A stretch of DNA of 64,000 bases. It comes from a virus. Below are positions 23,020-64,000 of this stretch, piece after piece; position 1 is the stretch's first letter; the number at the start of each line of letters is the position of its first letter. The stretch lies in IMG/VR virus record IMGVR_UViG_3300042332_001447, positions 31,774 through 95,773 of that record. One strand, written 5' to 3'. A program made the position numbers and the translations under genes. Under the pieces are notes generated by a model that was not told the DNA's origin, did not search any database, and saw only the letters and a program-made list of their open reading frames with translations.

Positions 23020-23580
23020 ATGAAAATGAACTTTAATGCCCTATATAATAAAATGCTTTCAGAGCATGTACTGGAAAGAGATCAACAAGGCGGATTTCAA
23101 CTCGGGGATAGAGTCGTTTTCAAAAAAGACTGGCAAAAAAATAACTATTTTGACGGTAAAGGTGCAAGTTTTCTTGAAACTATAAAGAGCTGTAGCTCGC
23201 CAGGGTTTGACTTACCGCTACGTATAAGTTCTTTTACAACATTAAAACCTACTAGTCTTCAAGATGTGGGTTACGGTAAAGTAAGTACTACAGGAATATT
23301 GGTTGATATTGTAATTGAGTACGCTCCAGGGCTCTTCCGCAACCCAATGACTGTTCCTATCGAAGTTCTCGAGAGACAAGATGATGGTATAAATACAGGG
23401 CCACGTGTTGCTAGCTGGACTCGTAAATCGAGAGTTCACAGCCCTGAAGAAATTAAAGCAAAAGGTGCAGAAAATTTTGATGTAAATCTTATAAACAAAA
23501 ATACTGTCTTACCTACAGCTACAAAATCTCGAGACGATACTAAGCCGTCTAAAAACTGGAAACCTTTTCCGACTAAGTGA
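23020..23580 (+). CDS. hypothetical late protein
   Basis: 186-aa ORF preceded by CATAAATA at 22998-23005. Confidence 0.6.
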   Translation: MKMNFNALYNKMLSEHVLERDQQGGFQLGDRVVFKKDWQKNNYFDGKGASFLETIKSCSSPGFDLPLRISSFTTLKPTSLQDVGYGKVSTTGILVDIVIEYAPGLFRNPMTVPIEVLERQDDGINTGPRVASWTRKSRVHSPEEIKAKGAENFDVNLINKNTVLPTATKSRDDTKPSKNWKPFPTK

Positions 23581-23601
23581 ACTACCGATTAACTAAAGAT
23601 C
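23577..23601 (-). mobile_element. scar of the IS605-like mini-element right end
   Basis: gtgaactaccgattaactaaagatc matches 34541-34565 at 22 of 25 positions. Confidence 0.65.
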
Positions 23602-23631
23602 TCCTAATCTCTGAGAGTAGGCTTTCTTATT

Positions 23632-24324
23632 TTAACTTATTTTCCAAAATTCAGCCTGTCCACCTAAACTCGTTAAAACGGTGTTTGTGTTGCTAGCTTT
23701 TTGCTGTACTCCGTAAACGGTGCTTGTTGATGTTACTTTTATCGTACCTTCTAGTGTTAAATGATGAGTGGTATGTTGCAATGGTGTATTAGATGCACTC
23801 CCCGCATTTGTCATATTATCAAGCATAGGGGTAAATTTTATAAATTTAACTGCTGTGCCTTCAACAAACTGCACGGTTGTTGTATAGTATAACCCGCTCG
23901 TGTACACTAAGTTATCTTTGAGATGACAGGGAAGATGAATTTTACATTGATATACACCTGTAGATTTAAAGTTAAAATTACCTGATCCTTGATTATTAAT
24001 AAAAGAAATAGATGTTTCTTCTAAACCACTGTACACTCTGTTTTGAAATGTTGTTCCAATACTTACATTTGCTGAAGCTAGATTTTCATAAAGTCTAGCG
24101 TAAGGGTAGCTTCCGAGATTATTCATAACAATAGTATTTAATGCATTTAAACTAGCGGATAGTGAAGAAATTTTTGTTTGTAGTGCTATATCAGTAGCAT
24201 CAAAATGATTAAAGTTTGCATTAATAACATCTAAAGAATCTCCCATGCACCATTCTTGATAAATTCTATACGGTACATTAGGATATGGAGTTGAAGGTAG
24301 GACTGTCGTGTTAAAAAGAGCCAT
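23632..24324 (-). CDS. short fibre-like virion protein
   Basis: CMGDSLDVINANF anchor motif shared with 76..1386, followed by a coiled-coil-like segment. Confidence 0.55.
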   Translation of the reverse strand: MALFNTTVLPSTPYPNVPYRIYQEWCMGDSLDVINANFNHFDATDIALQTKISSLSASLNALNTIVMNNLGSYPYARLYENLASANVSIGTTFQNRVYSGLEETSISFINNQGSGNFNFKSTGVYQCKIHLPCHLKDNLVYTSGLYYTTTVQFVEGTAVKFIKFTPMLDNMTNAGSASNTPLQHTTHHLTLEGTIKVTSTSTVYGVQQKASNTNTVLTSLGGQAEFWKIS

Positions 24325-33366: not shown

Positions 33367-34245
33367 TTATAACTGCATTATTGAAGCTTCGTTTGTTTCA
33401 TTAGCTTTTTCAGTTACAAACGTTTTTTCAAGTTGTTTCATAAAAATATTATATTCCCCGGGTGTACAATTTTCTATATAATCTGCTGATATATTGCTAT
33501 GCTTGGACAGCATAAAAATATTTTCATATATTGCTGTTATATCTTCACTAAAAATAATTTTAAAAAGAGATATTATATATTCTGGGGTTATGTTGATAGG
33601 TATTTTTACTCTTTTATCTATTTTAAGATACTCTAATAAATTAACTGGTTCAAGTTTCTTTTTAACAGCATTAAATCTTTCTCTGACACCTAGCGCGGCT
33701 TTTATAGGTAGCTTGTTAAAAACTTCTATTTTTTTCTCATACGATATTTTATTGTAATCTATTTTTCTATGATCGCCTATAATAACACTCTCAATTACAG
33801 AGCAGGGTAAGTACGTAGGAGGTAAACAAAATATATCTTTTAAGACAGGTATTTTAAAGTTAATTGTTATGTCTTTAGTAATATATGCAGTTTGTAGTTC
33901 TTTAAAGTTTAATTTATCAATTGTTTCTGCGAAAAATAAGAGATTTGCCTGAATATTGGTTTGCTTATCATTTACCGTTGCAATAAGATCTACAATATTA
34001 GGGGAACTTAAGCACTTTATTTGAATTAATAGGCAAATAAAATCTAAAAAATTTAAAGATTCTACTCGTTCAAGCTGTAAGTCTGTTTTATTTGCTACAA
34101 AAGAATTAATGTTATCAATAAAATCTGAAGGAGCACTTTCACATAATAATAAATTTTTAAGTATAAACTTTAAATCTCTTACAGAGTATTCAGCAATCAT
34201 AACATTTTTATCTTTAATGTTAATTTTTACACCAAAAGTATTCAT
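33367..34245 (-). CDS. gp26-like protein with C-terminal gp51-like hub assembly chaperone motif
   Basis: IYENIFMLSKHSNISADYIENCTPGEYNIFMKQL. Confidence 0.55.
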   Translation of the reverse strand: MNTFGVKINIKDKNVMIAEYSVRDLKFILKNLLLCESAPSDFIDNINSFVANKTDLQLERVESLNFLDFICLLIQIKCLSSPNIVDLIATVNDKQTNIQANLLFFAETIDKLNFKELQTAYITKDITINFKIPVLKDIFCLPPTYLPCSVIESVIIGDHRKIDYNKISYEKKIEVFNKLPIKAALGVRERFNAVKKKLEPVNLLEYLKIDKRVKIPINITPEYIISLFKIIFSEDITAIYENIFMLSKHSNISADYIENCTPGEYNIFMKQLEKTFVTEKANETNEASIMQL

Positions 34246-34540
34246 AATGATGGCGGAGTAGATGCTTTGTTAATCTGTTCTTTACTCGTTTCCTTTGTTT
34301 GAGGAGCTTTATTTACCAGGGTCTGTTTGAGAATATTATTTACATTTTCTGCTGCTTTTGTATTTCCGTACATAATTGCATTAGCGTTATAATTTTCTAC
34401 AATCGACTGTCTTTGATTATCGTTTAAATTTTTCCACAATTCAGGCTTAACGCCTCGAGGTAACATGGTTGAGGTAGATCTACCTATAGTTATATTATCA
34501 TTCAGCGTTTCTTTTAGTTGTTTGTTTTGTAATTCTTTGA
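34242..34540 (-). pseudogene. detached 3' part of the tail-tube-like gene 34891..35649
   Basis: the frame KELQNKQLKETLNDNITIGRSTST-MLPRG... is open up to the element boundary and fuses in frame when 34541-34907 is removed. Confidence 0.75.
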
Positions 34541-34700
34541 GTGAACTACCGAACGACTAAAGATCGTTCGGCTTCAGAACATAAATGTTCTTTCTTTTTA
34601 GACACTTCATAGCCGCTGCTTTTAAATGAATTTAAAAGTCTTATGTCAGCTCCATGCCTGTAATCGACAGTTCCTGCCGATGAACATCCATAGTATGTTC
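34541..34700 (-). ncRNA. TnpB omegaRNA (reRNA)-like scaffold; predicted guide is the flank 34540-34521
   Basis: multi-hairpin right-end sequence that translates as a tnpB-like tail (SAGTVDYRHG); conserved in the second copy; 5' boundary approximate. Confidence 0.6.
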
Positions 34701-34907
34701 TTTTTGCCTTTGATATACTTGGTATCAGCATCCAAAAGGAAGACGGAGTCTTCCTTGCTACGCCACTGAAAGGTCTTTTCATTATTTGTTTTAGATCTGT
34801 TTCCATTGAAGGGGTCTGTTTATATTTATCTCTTTTATTTATCTTTTGCAAGGCTGAGTTTCATCTGAGTGACTAAAGATCACTCGGCTTTCACTCAGTC
34901 CTGAAAT
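34541..34907 (-). mobile_element. 367-bp non-autonomous IS200/IS605-family element
   Basis: inserted 3' of TTAC; left end AAAG + hairpin CCGAGTGATCTTTAGTCACTCAG; right end GAAG + hairpin CCGAACGATCTTTAGTCGTTCGG-TAG-TTCAC; precise removal restores a reading frame. Confidence 0.85.
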
Positions 34908-35649
34908 GTAAAGCTTTATTGTTTTTGTATAACTGTAAAAGTTTGTTATCCGTAAAGGTGTCAAGAGTGTAGTAATGATATAAAAAACTTACACCTCTTG
35001 TATCAGATCTAATACCTGCTGAATAATTCCACTCCTCAGAGTCAATCTCAATAGGACATGCACCCCAAAACGTATAGTGCTGAGTAACAGTTGGAGGCTC
35101 TTCTGCTGATGTTACACCGAGCTTCCATATAGAAAAATTACATCTATAATTTTCATCTCCCTTTCTAGCTATTAAACCAAGTCTACTAGTAGCTATTACC
35201 CATGCTCTTAACGTATTATCAACAAAACTGATATTAGTATCTAAAAACTGCATCTTCATTGCCGGGTAAACGTCTCTACCCCCGCCAACATAAGAACGTA
35301 AAAACCCGTTCATTTGATCACCTACAGGGTTAACCGTAGTGCTTTCTCCTGGCATTTGTACGGCTTGGACAAACACACATCCTTTACGGGTTTGATAGGT
35401 TTCGTCAACTGTTGCGTTCACACAATCATCTATAACCCATTTACCAGGTTGGGTTGTAGTACCGTATGTTTTTATAGCCTTAACAGGTATAACATCACTT
35501 TTTGCATCAACAGTCTGACCGTTATAGAGTCCTTCAAACTGCAACATCCATTGCGCGCCTTTCGGTATACTACCAGCAGGACTTGCAAGAACTTCATTAA
35601 GAAAATATGGTACTCTACCTGAAAATGGTGTTGCTTGGAACGTAGACAT
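34891..35649 (-). CDS. tail-tube-fold baseplate protein (gp54-like), truncated at the C-terminus by the IS mini-element
   Basis: VQAVQMPGES, F.DTN..F....LRAW, YTFWGACPIEI tube-fold motifs; stop codon is supplied by the element. Confidence 0.65.
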   Translation of the reverse strand: MSTFQATPFSGRVPYFLNEVLASPAGSIPKGAQWMLQFEGLYNGQTVDAKSDVIPVKAIKTYGTTTQPGKWVIDDCVNATVDETYQTRKGCVFVQAVQMPGESTTVNPVGDQMNGFLRSYVGGGRDVYPAMKMQFLDTNISFVDNTLRAWVIATSRLGLIARKGDENYRCNFSIWKLGVTSAEEPPTVTQHYTFWGACPIEIDSEEWNYSAGIRSDTRGVSFLYHYYTLDTFTDNKLLQLYKNNKALHFRTE

Positions 35650-35700
35650 GTTATTTATATTTAAGACTACGTAATATGTACCGCACGGGTAAAGTTACCT

Positions 35701-36282
35701 TTAAAACGGGAACATATTTTTTAACATAGACTTCCAACTAGAGCTTGAACCATTCTGTGTTACTTCCCAATACTGGTACGCCATAGTACACTCTATTTTA
35801 ACGACAGAGCCGTTATCTCCTATATCGTACGTAGCTTGCCCGATGTTGGTTAAATACGCACCGACTAAACGATATTGTCTTATAGGGGCTGCGTTAATGT
35901 CTTTCCCAAGCAGATTAATTACTATACTTTGAGACGCTGGTGGGGTTTTGTATGCTCCTCCTGAAATAGATTCATCAAACACGTTGAATGAAGCGTCTTC
36001 AAGTATCGAGCGTAATTTATACTCTTGATCACATCTGAAGGTAATAGACCAGCTATCAGAATTTGGATAACTAGCTGTACCAGGTACGTTAAACTGAAGA
36101 CCCATAAAAGGTACAGGAATATTAGCTATAGAACGACCAGGGAGAGTTGCTGATTCCATATATACAAGTATATCTGGATCAATTAATGAGCCGAGCTGTT
36201 CGACTCTGTACTGAAACGCTCTTGCGAAATCTTGCTTTTGGGCAGCTGAATAAAATTGTGTTATACCTTGTGGAGTAGCCAT
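35701..36282 (-). CDS. gp19: tail tube protein gp19
   Basis: ARAFQY, SATLPGRSIANIPVPFMG...PG, WSITF, Y.LVGAY..NIG, AYQYW. Confidence 0.88.
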   Translation of the reverse strand: MATPQGITQFYSAAQKQDFARAFQYRVEQLGSLIDPDILVYMESATLPGRSIANIPVPFMGLQFNVPGTASYPNSDSWSITFRCDQEYKLRSILEDASFNVFDESISGGAYKTPPASQSIVINLLGKDINAAPIRQYRLVGAYLTNIGQATYDIGDNGSVVKIECTMAYQYWEVTQNGSSSSWKSMLKNMFPF

Positions 36283-36337: not shown

Positions 36338-38104
36338 TTACGGAGTATATGTATATACAAAGCTTCCGCAGTCGTATATTTTTCTGTAACCGTTATTATA
36401 CATAATTTGTGTCTCTGTAAGATGTTTGCTAGATTCATCGCATATTTTATGTTTTTGAAACTTAACCCTGTGAAAAAGATTTACTGTATCATTGGTGTAC
36501 CAGTAGTTCGGTGAACTACAATGAGATAATGTAAAGCCTAGTGTGCTATATAAATTACCGTTTGAGTATCTTCTATCAGCATAAGATATGACTTTTTTAG
36601 GTGTATATGTCTTTATAAAAAATTGAAACAGCTTCGATGCACCTCCAACAGTTATCGTATTCAAAGTATTACAAAAACGCAAAAGTTCCATTTCTGGTGC
36701 TTTTGATGTAATTTTTCTAGCGCCAAATGTCATAACAGCTACGAGTTCATCTTTATAATAAAGACCTAAATTTATTTTTGACGCACAATCTCCTTGGATA
36801 TGGTTAGTTACAAGAAATTGTTCTTTAGTGAAATTATCGAGAGCTTTTATATGGCAATTTCTTGCGTATATTTTTCTATCAATAACGCCTAATTTACTTT
36901 TAATAACAGATTCTACAATAGGTCTTTTATCTAACCATTCATTTTCAAAAACATGTATTAGCTGTATATTTTTTTCAAGACATAGCACGGTTTTATTTAA
37001 GTGGCTCTTTTTATTTACACTTTCGAGATACGAGTTGTTGGGGTATGTAGTACCAAAACTATGCCATAAAATACCGTTATATTCAATAGCTAATTGTTTT
37101 TGAGGTACTAAAATATCTAATTCTTTTCCGTTTAAAGTGGTAGTATCGTTCTCAATAATATTGAAACCTAAACTTTCTATAAATGCACATATTACTTTTT
37201 CTTCCCTTGATATCCCTTTATCTCCATAGCACCCCGAGCAATAAATATCTTTCCACCTAGCATTTGTGAGTGTTTTTTTGTGAACTTTTTTACATACATT
37301 GCACTGTAATGTAAAAGTGGTGTTTTTTAAACAACTAATATCTTCACTTAAAACAGTGAAATTTTGTTGTTCTATATTTTCAATAATGTTTTTGGTGAGT
37401 TGTTTTATTCTTTCTTTGTTACTACTATTTTTTCTATAACCGGTTATAAAATTATTAAAAACAGCTTTTTGCCCATTGTTGCTTGAACATAAAGGAGGTT
37501 CTATTTTATACTTTAATAAATAAAACCTCTCGCTCCAATTTACATCTTTCAGGTCTTCAAATTTAAGTAAGTAATGCTCTGTATAATGTAAAAGCGAGCA
37601 CAAAATATCACTATGTGCGGTTTTATCTTTTACGTTAATAAAATTCGATAATCTCCCAGTATCCGTATCACGGATTTTCTTATCAACAAACTCTTCTACA
37701 ATCTCTCTTGAAAGTAACGTGTAATGCGAGCTTCTATAGCGACAGAGTAGTTTTTTATTAATATCTTTAATATTTTCTTTCTTATTAAACGATATTTTTT
37801 TATTTCTTTCTTTGAAGTTTATAACATGTTTACTGTTTTCTCTACCGCTTACAAAAGCATATCTTTTTACGCTCGGTAAAAATTTTAAAGGTTGCTTTGT
37901 AACCTCACATATAGGTAGATGTGTTATATTTTCTCGAATACAAAATACTCTCTCTGAAATTGATCTATCTGCAGGGAGAAAGCTAGTAGCATCTAATATA
38001 TCTCTATATAGCTTAGATGCTCTAAACCACTCTCTACGAATTAGAGCGGTATTTACTTTACCAGTTTTTGTTAAAATACAACGCTTAATATCATCTAAAA
38101 GCAT
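36338..38104 (-). CDS. Hef-like homing endonuclease (Vsr/DUF559-like nuclease plus Mom/GNAT-like C-terminal domain)
   Basis: SREE...ELDILVP..LAIEYNGILWHS; IYARNC...NHIQG...ELLRFC...GGASKL..SYADRRYS; CxxC...CxxC zinc motif. Confidence 0.75.
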   Translation of the reverse strand: MLLDDIKRCILTKTGKVNTALIRREWFRASKLYRDILDATSFLPADRSISERVFCIRENITHLPICEVTKQPLKFLPSVKRYAFVSGRENSKHVINFKERNKKISFNKKENIKDINKKLLCRYRSSHYTLLSREIVEEFVDKKIRDTDTGRLSNFINVKDKTAHSDILCSLLHYTEHYLLKFEDLKDVNWSERFYLLKYKIEPPLCSSNNGQKAVFNNFITGYRKNSSNKERIKQLTKNIIENIEQQNFTVLSEDISCLKNTTFTLQCNVCKKVHKKTLTNARWKDIYCSGCYGDKGISREEKVICAFIESLGFNIIENDTTTLNGKELDILVPQKQLAIEYNGILWHSFGTTYPNNSYLESVNKKSHLNKTVLCLEKNIQLIHVFENEWLDKRPIVESVIKSKLGVIDRKIYARNCHIKALDNFTKEQFLVTNHIQGDCASKINLGLYYKDELVAVMTFGARKITSKAPEMELLRFCNTLNTITVGGASKLFQFFIKTYTPKKVISYADRRYSNGNLYSTLGFTLSHCSSPNYWYTNDTVNLFHRVKFQKHKICDESSKHLTETQIMYNNGYRKIYDCGSFVYTYTP

Positions 38105-63873: not shown

Positions 63874-64000
63874 GTGAACTACCGAACGACTAAAGATCGT
63901 TCGGCTTCAGAACATAAATGTTCTTTCTTTTTAGACACTTCATCGCCGCTGCTTTTAAATTGCTTTAATAGTCTTATATCAGCTCCATGCCTGTAATCGA
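63874..64000 (-). mobile_element. second copy of the IS605-like right end / omegaRNA scaffold, continuing beyond the window
   Basis: near-identical to 34541-34667, with differences mostly in one AT-rich hairpin. Confidence 0.85.

Follow-up and report, generated by a model that had tools for sequence, protein, structure and literature searches.

A protein-free IS200/IS605 mini-transposon with an omegaRNA-type scaffold interrupts a tail gene of a T4-like lake phage

We wanted to define what interrupts the tail gene of this virus and whether the interrupting DNA could serve as a mobile source of guide RNA for a TnpB nuclease. The window, that is, the whole stretch of 64,000 nucleotides that was analysed, corresponds to bases 31774-95773 of a 95.8-kb IMG/VR virus record (G000) estimated to be 45% complete. 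Direct reading gave an insert of 367 bp on the minus strand, at window positions 34541-34907, with boundaries exact to the base; it follows TTAC and ends in TCAC, precisely as a preliminary description of this DNA had claimed. On the minus strand, the left flank ends in ...AAAGCTTTAC, the element starts with ATTTCAGG and ends with ...GGTAGTTCAC, and the right flank starts with TCAAAGAATTAC. The start of the element adjoins TTAC and its last 4 nt are TCAC, so that the tail gene reads ...AAT AAA GCT TTA C, then the element, then TC AAA GAA TTA CAA. Removing the element restores the frame, as had been proposed, with a 361-codon open frame (...YKNNKAL/LKELQNKQ...) running over the joint. The insertion lies directly 3' of the tetranucleotide (TTAC/element/TCAAAG), with a target-site duplication of 0, terminal inverted repeats of 0 and unduplicated flanks. 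Both ends carry subterminal imperfect palindromes, on one strand, with a 4-nt guide before each, and their stems covary in other copies. The element and its ends are the following:

34541-34907, minus strand: whole non-autonomous IS200/IS605 mini-element (PATE) of 367 bp, by direct reading (100% self-match), with full-length copies at 92% and at 90-93% identity elsewhere in the phage.
34908-34911, minus strand: TTAC target, the left cleavage tetranucleotide and presumed TnpB TAM, by direct reading; it belongs to the flank, outside the element.
34865-34891, minus strand: left end, with guide AAAG at 34888-34891 and a hairpin with loop TCTTTAG at 34865-34887.
34541-34575, minus strand: right end, with guide GAAG at 34572-34575, a hairpin at 34549-34571 and the terminal TCAC at 34541-34544.

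The left end consists of AAAG and then the hairpin CCGAGTGA-TCTTTAG-TCACTCAG, with one C.A mismatch, while the right end consists of GAAG, the perfect hairpin CCGAACGA-TCTTTAG-TCGTTCGG and then TAGTTCAC. The TTAC cut lies 20 nt from the left hairpin and the right cut 8 nt past the right hairpin. As judged from these letters, the element keeps all that TnpA requires, namely the cleavage tetranucleotides TTAC and TCAC, the subterminal hairpins and the guide tetranucleotides. The base-by-base pairing map of TCAC with GAAG is one that we take to be that of Barabas et al. 2008. In IS608 from Helicobacter pylori, an AAAG guide at the foot of the left hairpin recognises the TTAC cleavage site 19 nt further 5', and the right hairpin has its guide on the 5' side and the cleavage site recognised by this guide on the 3' side (PMC3201880). 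The tetranucleotides at the hairpin feet of the mini-element, AAAG and GAAG, fit this cleavage-site/guide scheme, in line with the earlier claim. The mini-element is like IS608 in its TTAC site, its AAAG guide, its one-strand hairpins at both ends and the lack of target duplication, but it differs by its right site TCAC with guide GAAG (TCAA in IS608), by its left distance of 20 nt (19 in IS608) and by the absence of tnpA and tnpB.

No transposase gene is encoded within the element. Its longest internal ORF (101 aa) has no Pfam match, and the sole match of this ORF to the phage's own TnpB covers 32 residues at 56% identity (TnpB residues 370-401), past the catalytic domains; a tnpB-like tail, with neither TnpA nor TnpB, is what had been noticed at first. 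The left and right ends are respectively 88% and 75% identical to the ends of a tnpB element of the same record (G000:20907-22288), and in a second tnpB element the left stem has a different sequence with complementarity kept. The insert is a protein-free IS200/IS605 mini-transposon (PATE), an internally deleted derivative of an IS605-family tnpB element; its ends are intact, with hairpins and tetranucleotides read directly, and the identification is secure. The PATEs of Haloquadratum are reportedly another described set of IS200/IS605-family PATEs. An identity as a group I or group II intron or as an IStron found no support in the Rfam scan.

The preliminary description also placed a TnpB guide-RNA scaffold in the insert. 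The modules concerned, on the 3' side of the element and in its flank, are the following:

34738-34754, minus strand: internal hairpin GGAAGAC-TCC-GTCTTCC followed by TTTT, with variants in other copies and uncalled by the consensus terminator scan.
34682-34700, minus strand: hairpin H1, found in mini-elements only, just 5' of the scaffold common to tnpB elements, with three compensated stem versions.
34541-34680, minus strand: omegaRNA-type scaffold according to model R1, with SL1, a long-range helix, a central hairpin, hairpin H5 and the right-end hairpin.
34521-34540, minus strand: right flank, putative guide of 16-20 nt (TCAAAGAATTACAAAACAAA); the position is read directly, and the guide role is suggested by the published omegaRNA architecture.

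That a scaffold is present was borne out, the 3' 140 nt being omegaRNA-type both by a covariance model, R1, built from 31 tnpB-linked right ends (113 positions), and by covariation. R1 aligned from model position 1 to 113, its full length, with 34541-34680 of the mini-element, ending at 34541, and scored 87.3 bits (E 1.7e-18). Sequence identity between the final ~141 nt of the mini-element and the 3' terminus of the G000 tnpB element is 75%. Across 14 phage copies, a seven-helix structure had 95.8% of its cells paired, a percentage flattered by the structure having been drawn from the same 14 sequences, and 15 pairs changed on both sides, compensatory changes that are not flattered in this way. 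None of 500 shuffles was as good, slid controls reached 30-42%, and the fold z-score of the scaffold region against shuffles was -4.7. The H1 stem exists in three fully compensated versions (GAACAT/ATGTTC, GAAACT/AGTTTC and CTAGTT/AACTAG); since H1 is present in mini-copies only, this indicates that the structure has been maintained within the mini lineage itself. Recombination with different tnpB elements may have brought in part of the covariation among the copies, as exemplified by copy G2_b, whose right-end stem is of the L203 type.

Over positions 33500-36000, Rfam models gave only noise (E above 0.6, far below gathering scores). The 35-nt right-end motif GAAGCC-N6-TCTTTAG-N6-GGTAGTTCAC occurs in at least 120 prokaryote-genome stretches and at least 114 viral-contig stretches, and among the matches listed, 79 of 236 have a full tnpB directly upstream. 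With its 6-bp stem left free, the motif was found in tnpB elements of archaea (Methanosarcina, Methanogenium), Bacteroidota (Sphingobacterium among the genomes), Proteobacteria, Chloroflexota, a Rickettsia endosymbiont and many viral contigs (L034-L264). It is a very conserved scaffold terminus with no Rfam family. Compared with most relatives sharing it, the phage scaffold has an extra hairpin, H5. Other genomes also have mini-elements of this superfamily, as does one further viral contig, in which the element is 74% identical and keeps the same modules. Assigning a host by the right-end motif was tried and given up, as the motif is too widespread and, among the matches listed, no cellular copy is close to those of the phage.

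Besides the 367-bp element, four contigs of one metagenome contain 13 copies, complete or truncated, along with two tnpB elements that share its ends, showing that the insert is not a chance occurrence. Altogether, 7 internal mini-copies (one without a left end) and 7 copies cut at contig ends amount to about 11 elements, accompanied by a few degenerate solo ends. The record that contains the window also holds a second full copy (92% identical), a right-end fragment at each contig end and the complete tnpB element. The sister contigs, of 57.7, 33.5 and 9.1 kb (estimated to be 27%, 13% and 5% complete), are viral and come from the same metagenome. As nearly every contig end lies within a copy, we infer that a single ~210-kb genome, broken up at the repeats, gave rise to all four contigs, and the host genome would roughly be that of a ~210-kb T4-like lake phage. 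Two further traces of the family lie in the window:

63874-64000, minus strand: right end and scaffold of another copy, cut by the contig and window end, 95% identical to element positions 241-367 (R1 62.3 bits, E 1e-12), with flank GAAAGCAGGTAAG.
23577-23676, minus strand: isolated, degenerate right end (...GATCTTTAGTTAATCGGTAGTTCAC), which R1 matches only weakly (13.6 bits, E 0.21); probably a decayed element.

Ten left junctions could be read besides that of the 367-bp element, at TTAC (6-7), TTAT (3) and CTAC (1), whereas all 13 further copies end in GTTCAC, and every right flank is different. The copies are mosaic, with H1, the internal hairpin and the central scaffold hairpin combined differently from one copy to another, which suggests frequent recombination or gene conversion among them. 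Conservation along the element is fairly even (0.83-0.91). In the second full copy, copy B (G000:C1:14787-15152, L002:1501-1866), the left end is a perfect palindrome with a 19-bp stem and an inverted loop (CTAAAGA); as the AAAG guide is missing, this copy is probably not excisable by TnpA, and its scaffold is intact. All ends of the four sister contigs were found inside copies, these repeats having fragmented the assembly.

The tnpB element at G000:20907-22288 lies outside the window, starts after TTAC and ends in GGTAGTTCAC. Its 413-aa ORF, at G000:21031-22272, has the domains HTH_OrfB_IS605, OrfB_IS605 and Cas12f1-like_TNB, shows the D/E/D motifs GVDLG, ALESLN and HDRDINAA, and matches the ISDra2 TnpB structures 8h1j and 8exa over nearly its full length (E 7e-79). 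A second intact tnpB, with a 419-aa ORF, is located on sister contig G001. The objection that a cognate TnpB might be lacking falls away, since an intact ISDra2-like TnpB of 413 aa is encoded in the same record by an element with the same left and right ends. The ISDra2 TnpB and its omegaRNA are reportedly the subject of Karvelis et al. 2021. The system is like ISDra2 in that the phage TnpB aligns almost over its full length and the scaffold overlaps the tnpB 3' end and stops at the right boundary, with the flank as putative guide; unlike that of ISDra2, the predicted TAM is TTAC-like and not TTGAT. Concerning the transposase, no Y1 TnpA (PF01797) was found in G000-G003, about 196 kb or about 90% of the estimated genome.

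The genes around the insertion are the following:

34909-35649, minus strand: N-terminal 247 codons of a tail-tube-like gene, the ORF entering the element by 5 codons before a stop.
34245-34538, minus strand: last 98 codons of the tail-tube-like gene, cut off from it by the insert and forming a C-terminal extension with repeats, 88% identical to residues 235-333 of P0009.
36338-38104, minus strand: 588-aa homing/HNH-endonuclease-like ORF upstream of the tail tube gene (phrog_3339, E 1e-103; phrog_559).

The interrupted protein has 73 homologues, most of them of 240-270 aa with an end near the insertion point, and a longer C-terminal extension is present in few. This indicates that the insertion spares the conserved 247-residue core, to which 5 foreign codons are added, and severs only the variable, repeat-containing tail; it is probably tolerated because this core is intact. 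PF23849 (Phage_TTP_2) is assigned to the interrupted gene by the precomputed annotation of the collection only, and our own profile scans failed to reproduce it. The neighbourhood is a T4-type tail and baseplate module, in which the tail tube gene (phrog_45) adjoins the interrupted gene and further genes encode baseplate hub-like proteins (phrog_150, Pfam T4_baseplate) and a large protein with a peptidase-like region. The 588-aa endonuclease-like ORF is another selfish element in this tail module.

In the preliminary description, co-infecting relatives were expected to carry an empty allele in which TTAC is followed by TCAAAGAATTAC.... This allele was not found, as the two uninterrupted relatives, P0009 and L033, hold 99 extra codons between the flanks. 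P0009 is the closest uninterrupted allele, 99% identical over the shared N-part; after ...NNKAL it continues with 99 residues and then with LKELQNKQLKETLN.... L033 (Ga0114976_10041099), the sole return of the metagenome scan, is a second and more divergent one, with 99% identity over the N-part and DNA that is 94.8% identical up to the C of TTAC and then continues with CAAATAGTGC...; its left site is GCTTTAC/CAAATAG and its equivalent of the right flank is AAC CTG CTT, with no TTAC. The 99 extra codons mean that the element replaces 297 bp relative to both alleles. A search for the missing codons in G000 and in stretches of G001-G003 found none. The loss may have come from a TTAC-to-TTAC microhomology deletion before insertion, from recombination of two copies, one having entered each site (the copies being visibly mosaic), or from an element-mediated adjacent deletion, each of which is possible, and less likely from an assembly collapse. 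Neither blastn among deposited phages nor a search of IMG/VR with the N-terminal protein gave a match, and the best homologue of the tail gene in contigs G004-G006 and G008 was a 29% match. In L033 (positions 847-2000), the C-terminal extension has at least 3 copies of a ~50-residue repeat (...PELWKNLNDNQRQ...AAEN..NN.LK), after which the frame breaks and more repeat matches follow in another frame, the region being hypervariable among relatives.

The guide TCAAAGAATTACAAAACAAA had no other TAM-adjacent match in 1.95 Mb of sequence, and the guides of 13 copies gave, in the same 1.95 Mb, only chance matches with 2 mismatches and no TAM. No promoter was found inside the element, all sigma-70-like sites being outside it, and no terminator was called inside it by the consensus scan. 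As a promoter-type signal, GATAAATA was rejected because it is not enriched (6 in the window versus 7.5 expected). A single weak RNA run contained nothing matching the stretch. The stretch is present in lake-water metagenomes (Logan contigs). Three runs, each from a different study (2020-2024) and one of them possibly the source sample, yielded Logan contigs that match both flank-element junctions with 0 differences; the junctions were seen singly, with no contig over the whole element. From the right flank, the contigs extend 29 nt into the right end, and on the other side they continue from the left end to the left flank. Flank depths were 20.3 and 20.1. Inside the element, the summed depth was 15-70 times as high as in the flanks, which fits a family with many copies. 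The flank-to-flank joint of an empty site was in no contig of the three lake runs, and contigs cannot show absence. A 327-bp skip joint from 34563 to 34891, seen in two runs, was taken for a repeat artefact, since its short side is only 23 nt and the joint lies between two similar hairpins.

What could the element do in this phage? Protein-free PATE-like elements with the ends of resident tnpB or iscB elements often encode omegaRNAs for use in trans by a TnpB encoded elsewhere, and TnpB cuts the vacated donor site so that the transposon is restored by recombination (Meers et al. 2023). The phage element is like the PATEs of Geobacillus stearothermophilus, related to ISGst1/ISGst5 (Meers et al. 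2023), in having no protein gene and the ends of resident tnpB elements, and in being small and multi-copy with an omegaRNA module kept for a TnpB encoded elsewhere. It is unlike known PATEs in residing in a lytic-type T4-like phage genome and not in a chromosome, at about 11 copies per ~200 kb, one of them inside a structural gene whose closest relatives have at that junction 297 bp that this phage does not. The best-supported reading is that the element would supply the phage TnpB with a guide in trans, for its own retention or for homing, and we regard as probable an origin as a PATE spread by TnpA in trans, with scaffold and flank bound by this TnpB. The TnpA that would have spread the copies in trans could be encoded by the host or in the missing ~10% of the phage genome, and it would place them in single-stranded DNA on the 3' side of TTAC-like sites. 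The element lies in the orientation of the tail gene and would be transcribed together with it; its 3' part together with 16-20 nt of flank would be bound by the phage's TnpB. The predicted target of this complex is TTAC plus the adjoining flank sequence (TCAAAGAATTACAAAA), as present at the joint left by excision or in the uninserted allele of a co-infecting genome. After the cut, an occupied copy would serve as template for recombinational repair, by which the element would be restored or spread. RNA-guided retention or homing by the element is thus plausible.

A less probable but still serious alternative is that the mini-elements are recent deletion products once spread by TnpA and now decaying, with a scaffold conserved through youth or exchange and an RNA that is unused. 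Such inert relics would agree with the nearly uniform conservation along the element, with the loss of the AAAG guide in the perfectly palindromic left end of copy B, with degenerate solo right ends such as that at window positions 23577-23601, with the failure to find TnpA in G000-G003 and with the single weak RNA run, which had nothing on the stretch. They accord poorly with the compensatory, non-random substitutions in the seven helices, the mini-specific H1 included, with the two intact tnpB genes with complete catalytic motifs in the same genome and with the 74%-identical mini-element that has the same modules in another viral contig, and we consider this explanation unlikely.

The element could also belong to a system that benefits the phage. 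By analogy with homing systems, a lytic T4-like phage might carry an IS605-derived guide library, with two TnpBs and about a dozen cassettes each directed against its own uninserted locus, so that in mixed infections alleles of competitors would be cut and converted, or excluded, and the 297-bp deletion would be a scar of this. This would be an RNA-guided counterpart of the marker exclusion exerted by T4 homing endonucleases, and we hold it to be distinctly unlikely. Rather improbable, too, is the version in which TnpB and the dispersed guide cassettes are domesticated and kept mainly to cut the uninserted alleles of related competitors infecting the same cell, in an RNA-guided marker exclusion analogous to that of T4 homing endonucleases. 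About 11 cassettes with distinct guides stand beside two TnpBs with no TnpA found, the swarm is specific to this phage, a single element being present in each contig that carries one of the closest TnpB relatives, other homing elements abound in the phage, with a homing-endonuclease-like ORF adjoining, and the insertion allele persists across lake samples. Yet no target allele was found for any guide, in L033 or in the 1.95 Mb, and no close relative genomes appeared among deposited phages, IMG/VR or contigs G004-G006 and G008. Moreover, the guides are plain flanks, as in any IS605 element, and the known selfish retention (Meers et al. 2023) explains the data with no benefit to the phage. Finally, that the 297-bp deletion is only apparent, two element copies, one per TTAC, having been collapsed to one by the assembler, is highly improbable: all phage contig ends lie in copies, so that repeats disturbed the assembly, and public contigs confirm the junctions separately with none across the whole element, but the copies are 7-17% different, enough for individual assembly, the flank depths are equal (20.3 versus 20.1), the missing 99 codons are absent from G000 and the searched stretches of G001-G003, and two insertions within 300 bp would be required.

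Returning to the reading as a guide-bearing PATE served by the phage TnpB, PATEs with omegaRNAs used in trans (Meers et al. 2023) and TnpB-only IS605 elements in T4-like phages (2010) are known already. The element and its proposed mechanism are covered by this published PATE and TnpB work, so that the value of the locus lies in its setting and copy number and not in a new principle. What is unusual is the copy number in one phage, together with two intact nucleases, no visible transposase and a copy inside a structural gene. Guide-RNA-bearing mini-transposons can therefore multiply in a large virulent-type phage genome beside intact TnpB genes, with no visible transposase. Because single-stranded DNA is abundant during phage replication and recombination-dependent repair is very active, this is a natural test setting, suited to two questions: TnpB/omegaRNA retention and homing between co-infecting viral genomes, and the function of trans-acting guide cassettes.

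Other phages carry related genes. ISCaje1-4 are TnpB-only IS200/IS605 elements described in 2010 in the T4-like Campylobacter phages CP220 and CPt10 (PMC2853527). In the parts of that source available to us, they are like the present elements in the lack of tnpA and in their T4-like carriers, with sites that differ between related genomes, but they encode tnpB at one to few per genome, and those parts do not mention a swarm of protein-free guide-bearing derivatives. Phage-borne tnpB has also been discussed for cyanophage A-1(L). Another phage, G007 (335 kb, 96% complete), carries several tnpB elements of the same type as those described here. This phage, which has the same right-end motif, also encodes a 137-aa Y1 TnpA (L265, G007:C1:316244-316606), showing that autonomous IS200/IS605 machinery can be phage-borne.
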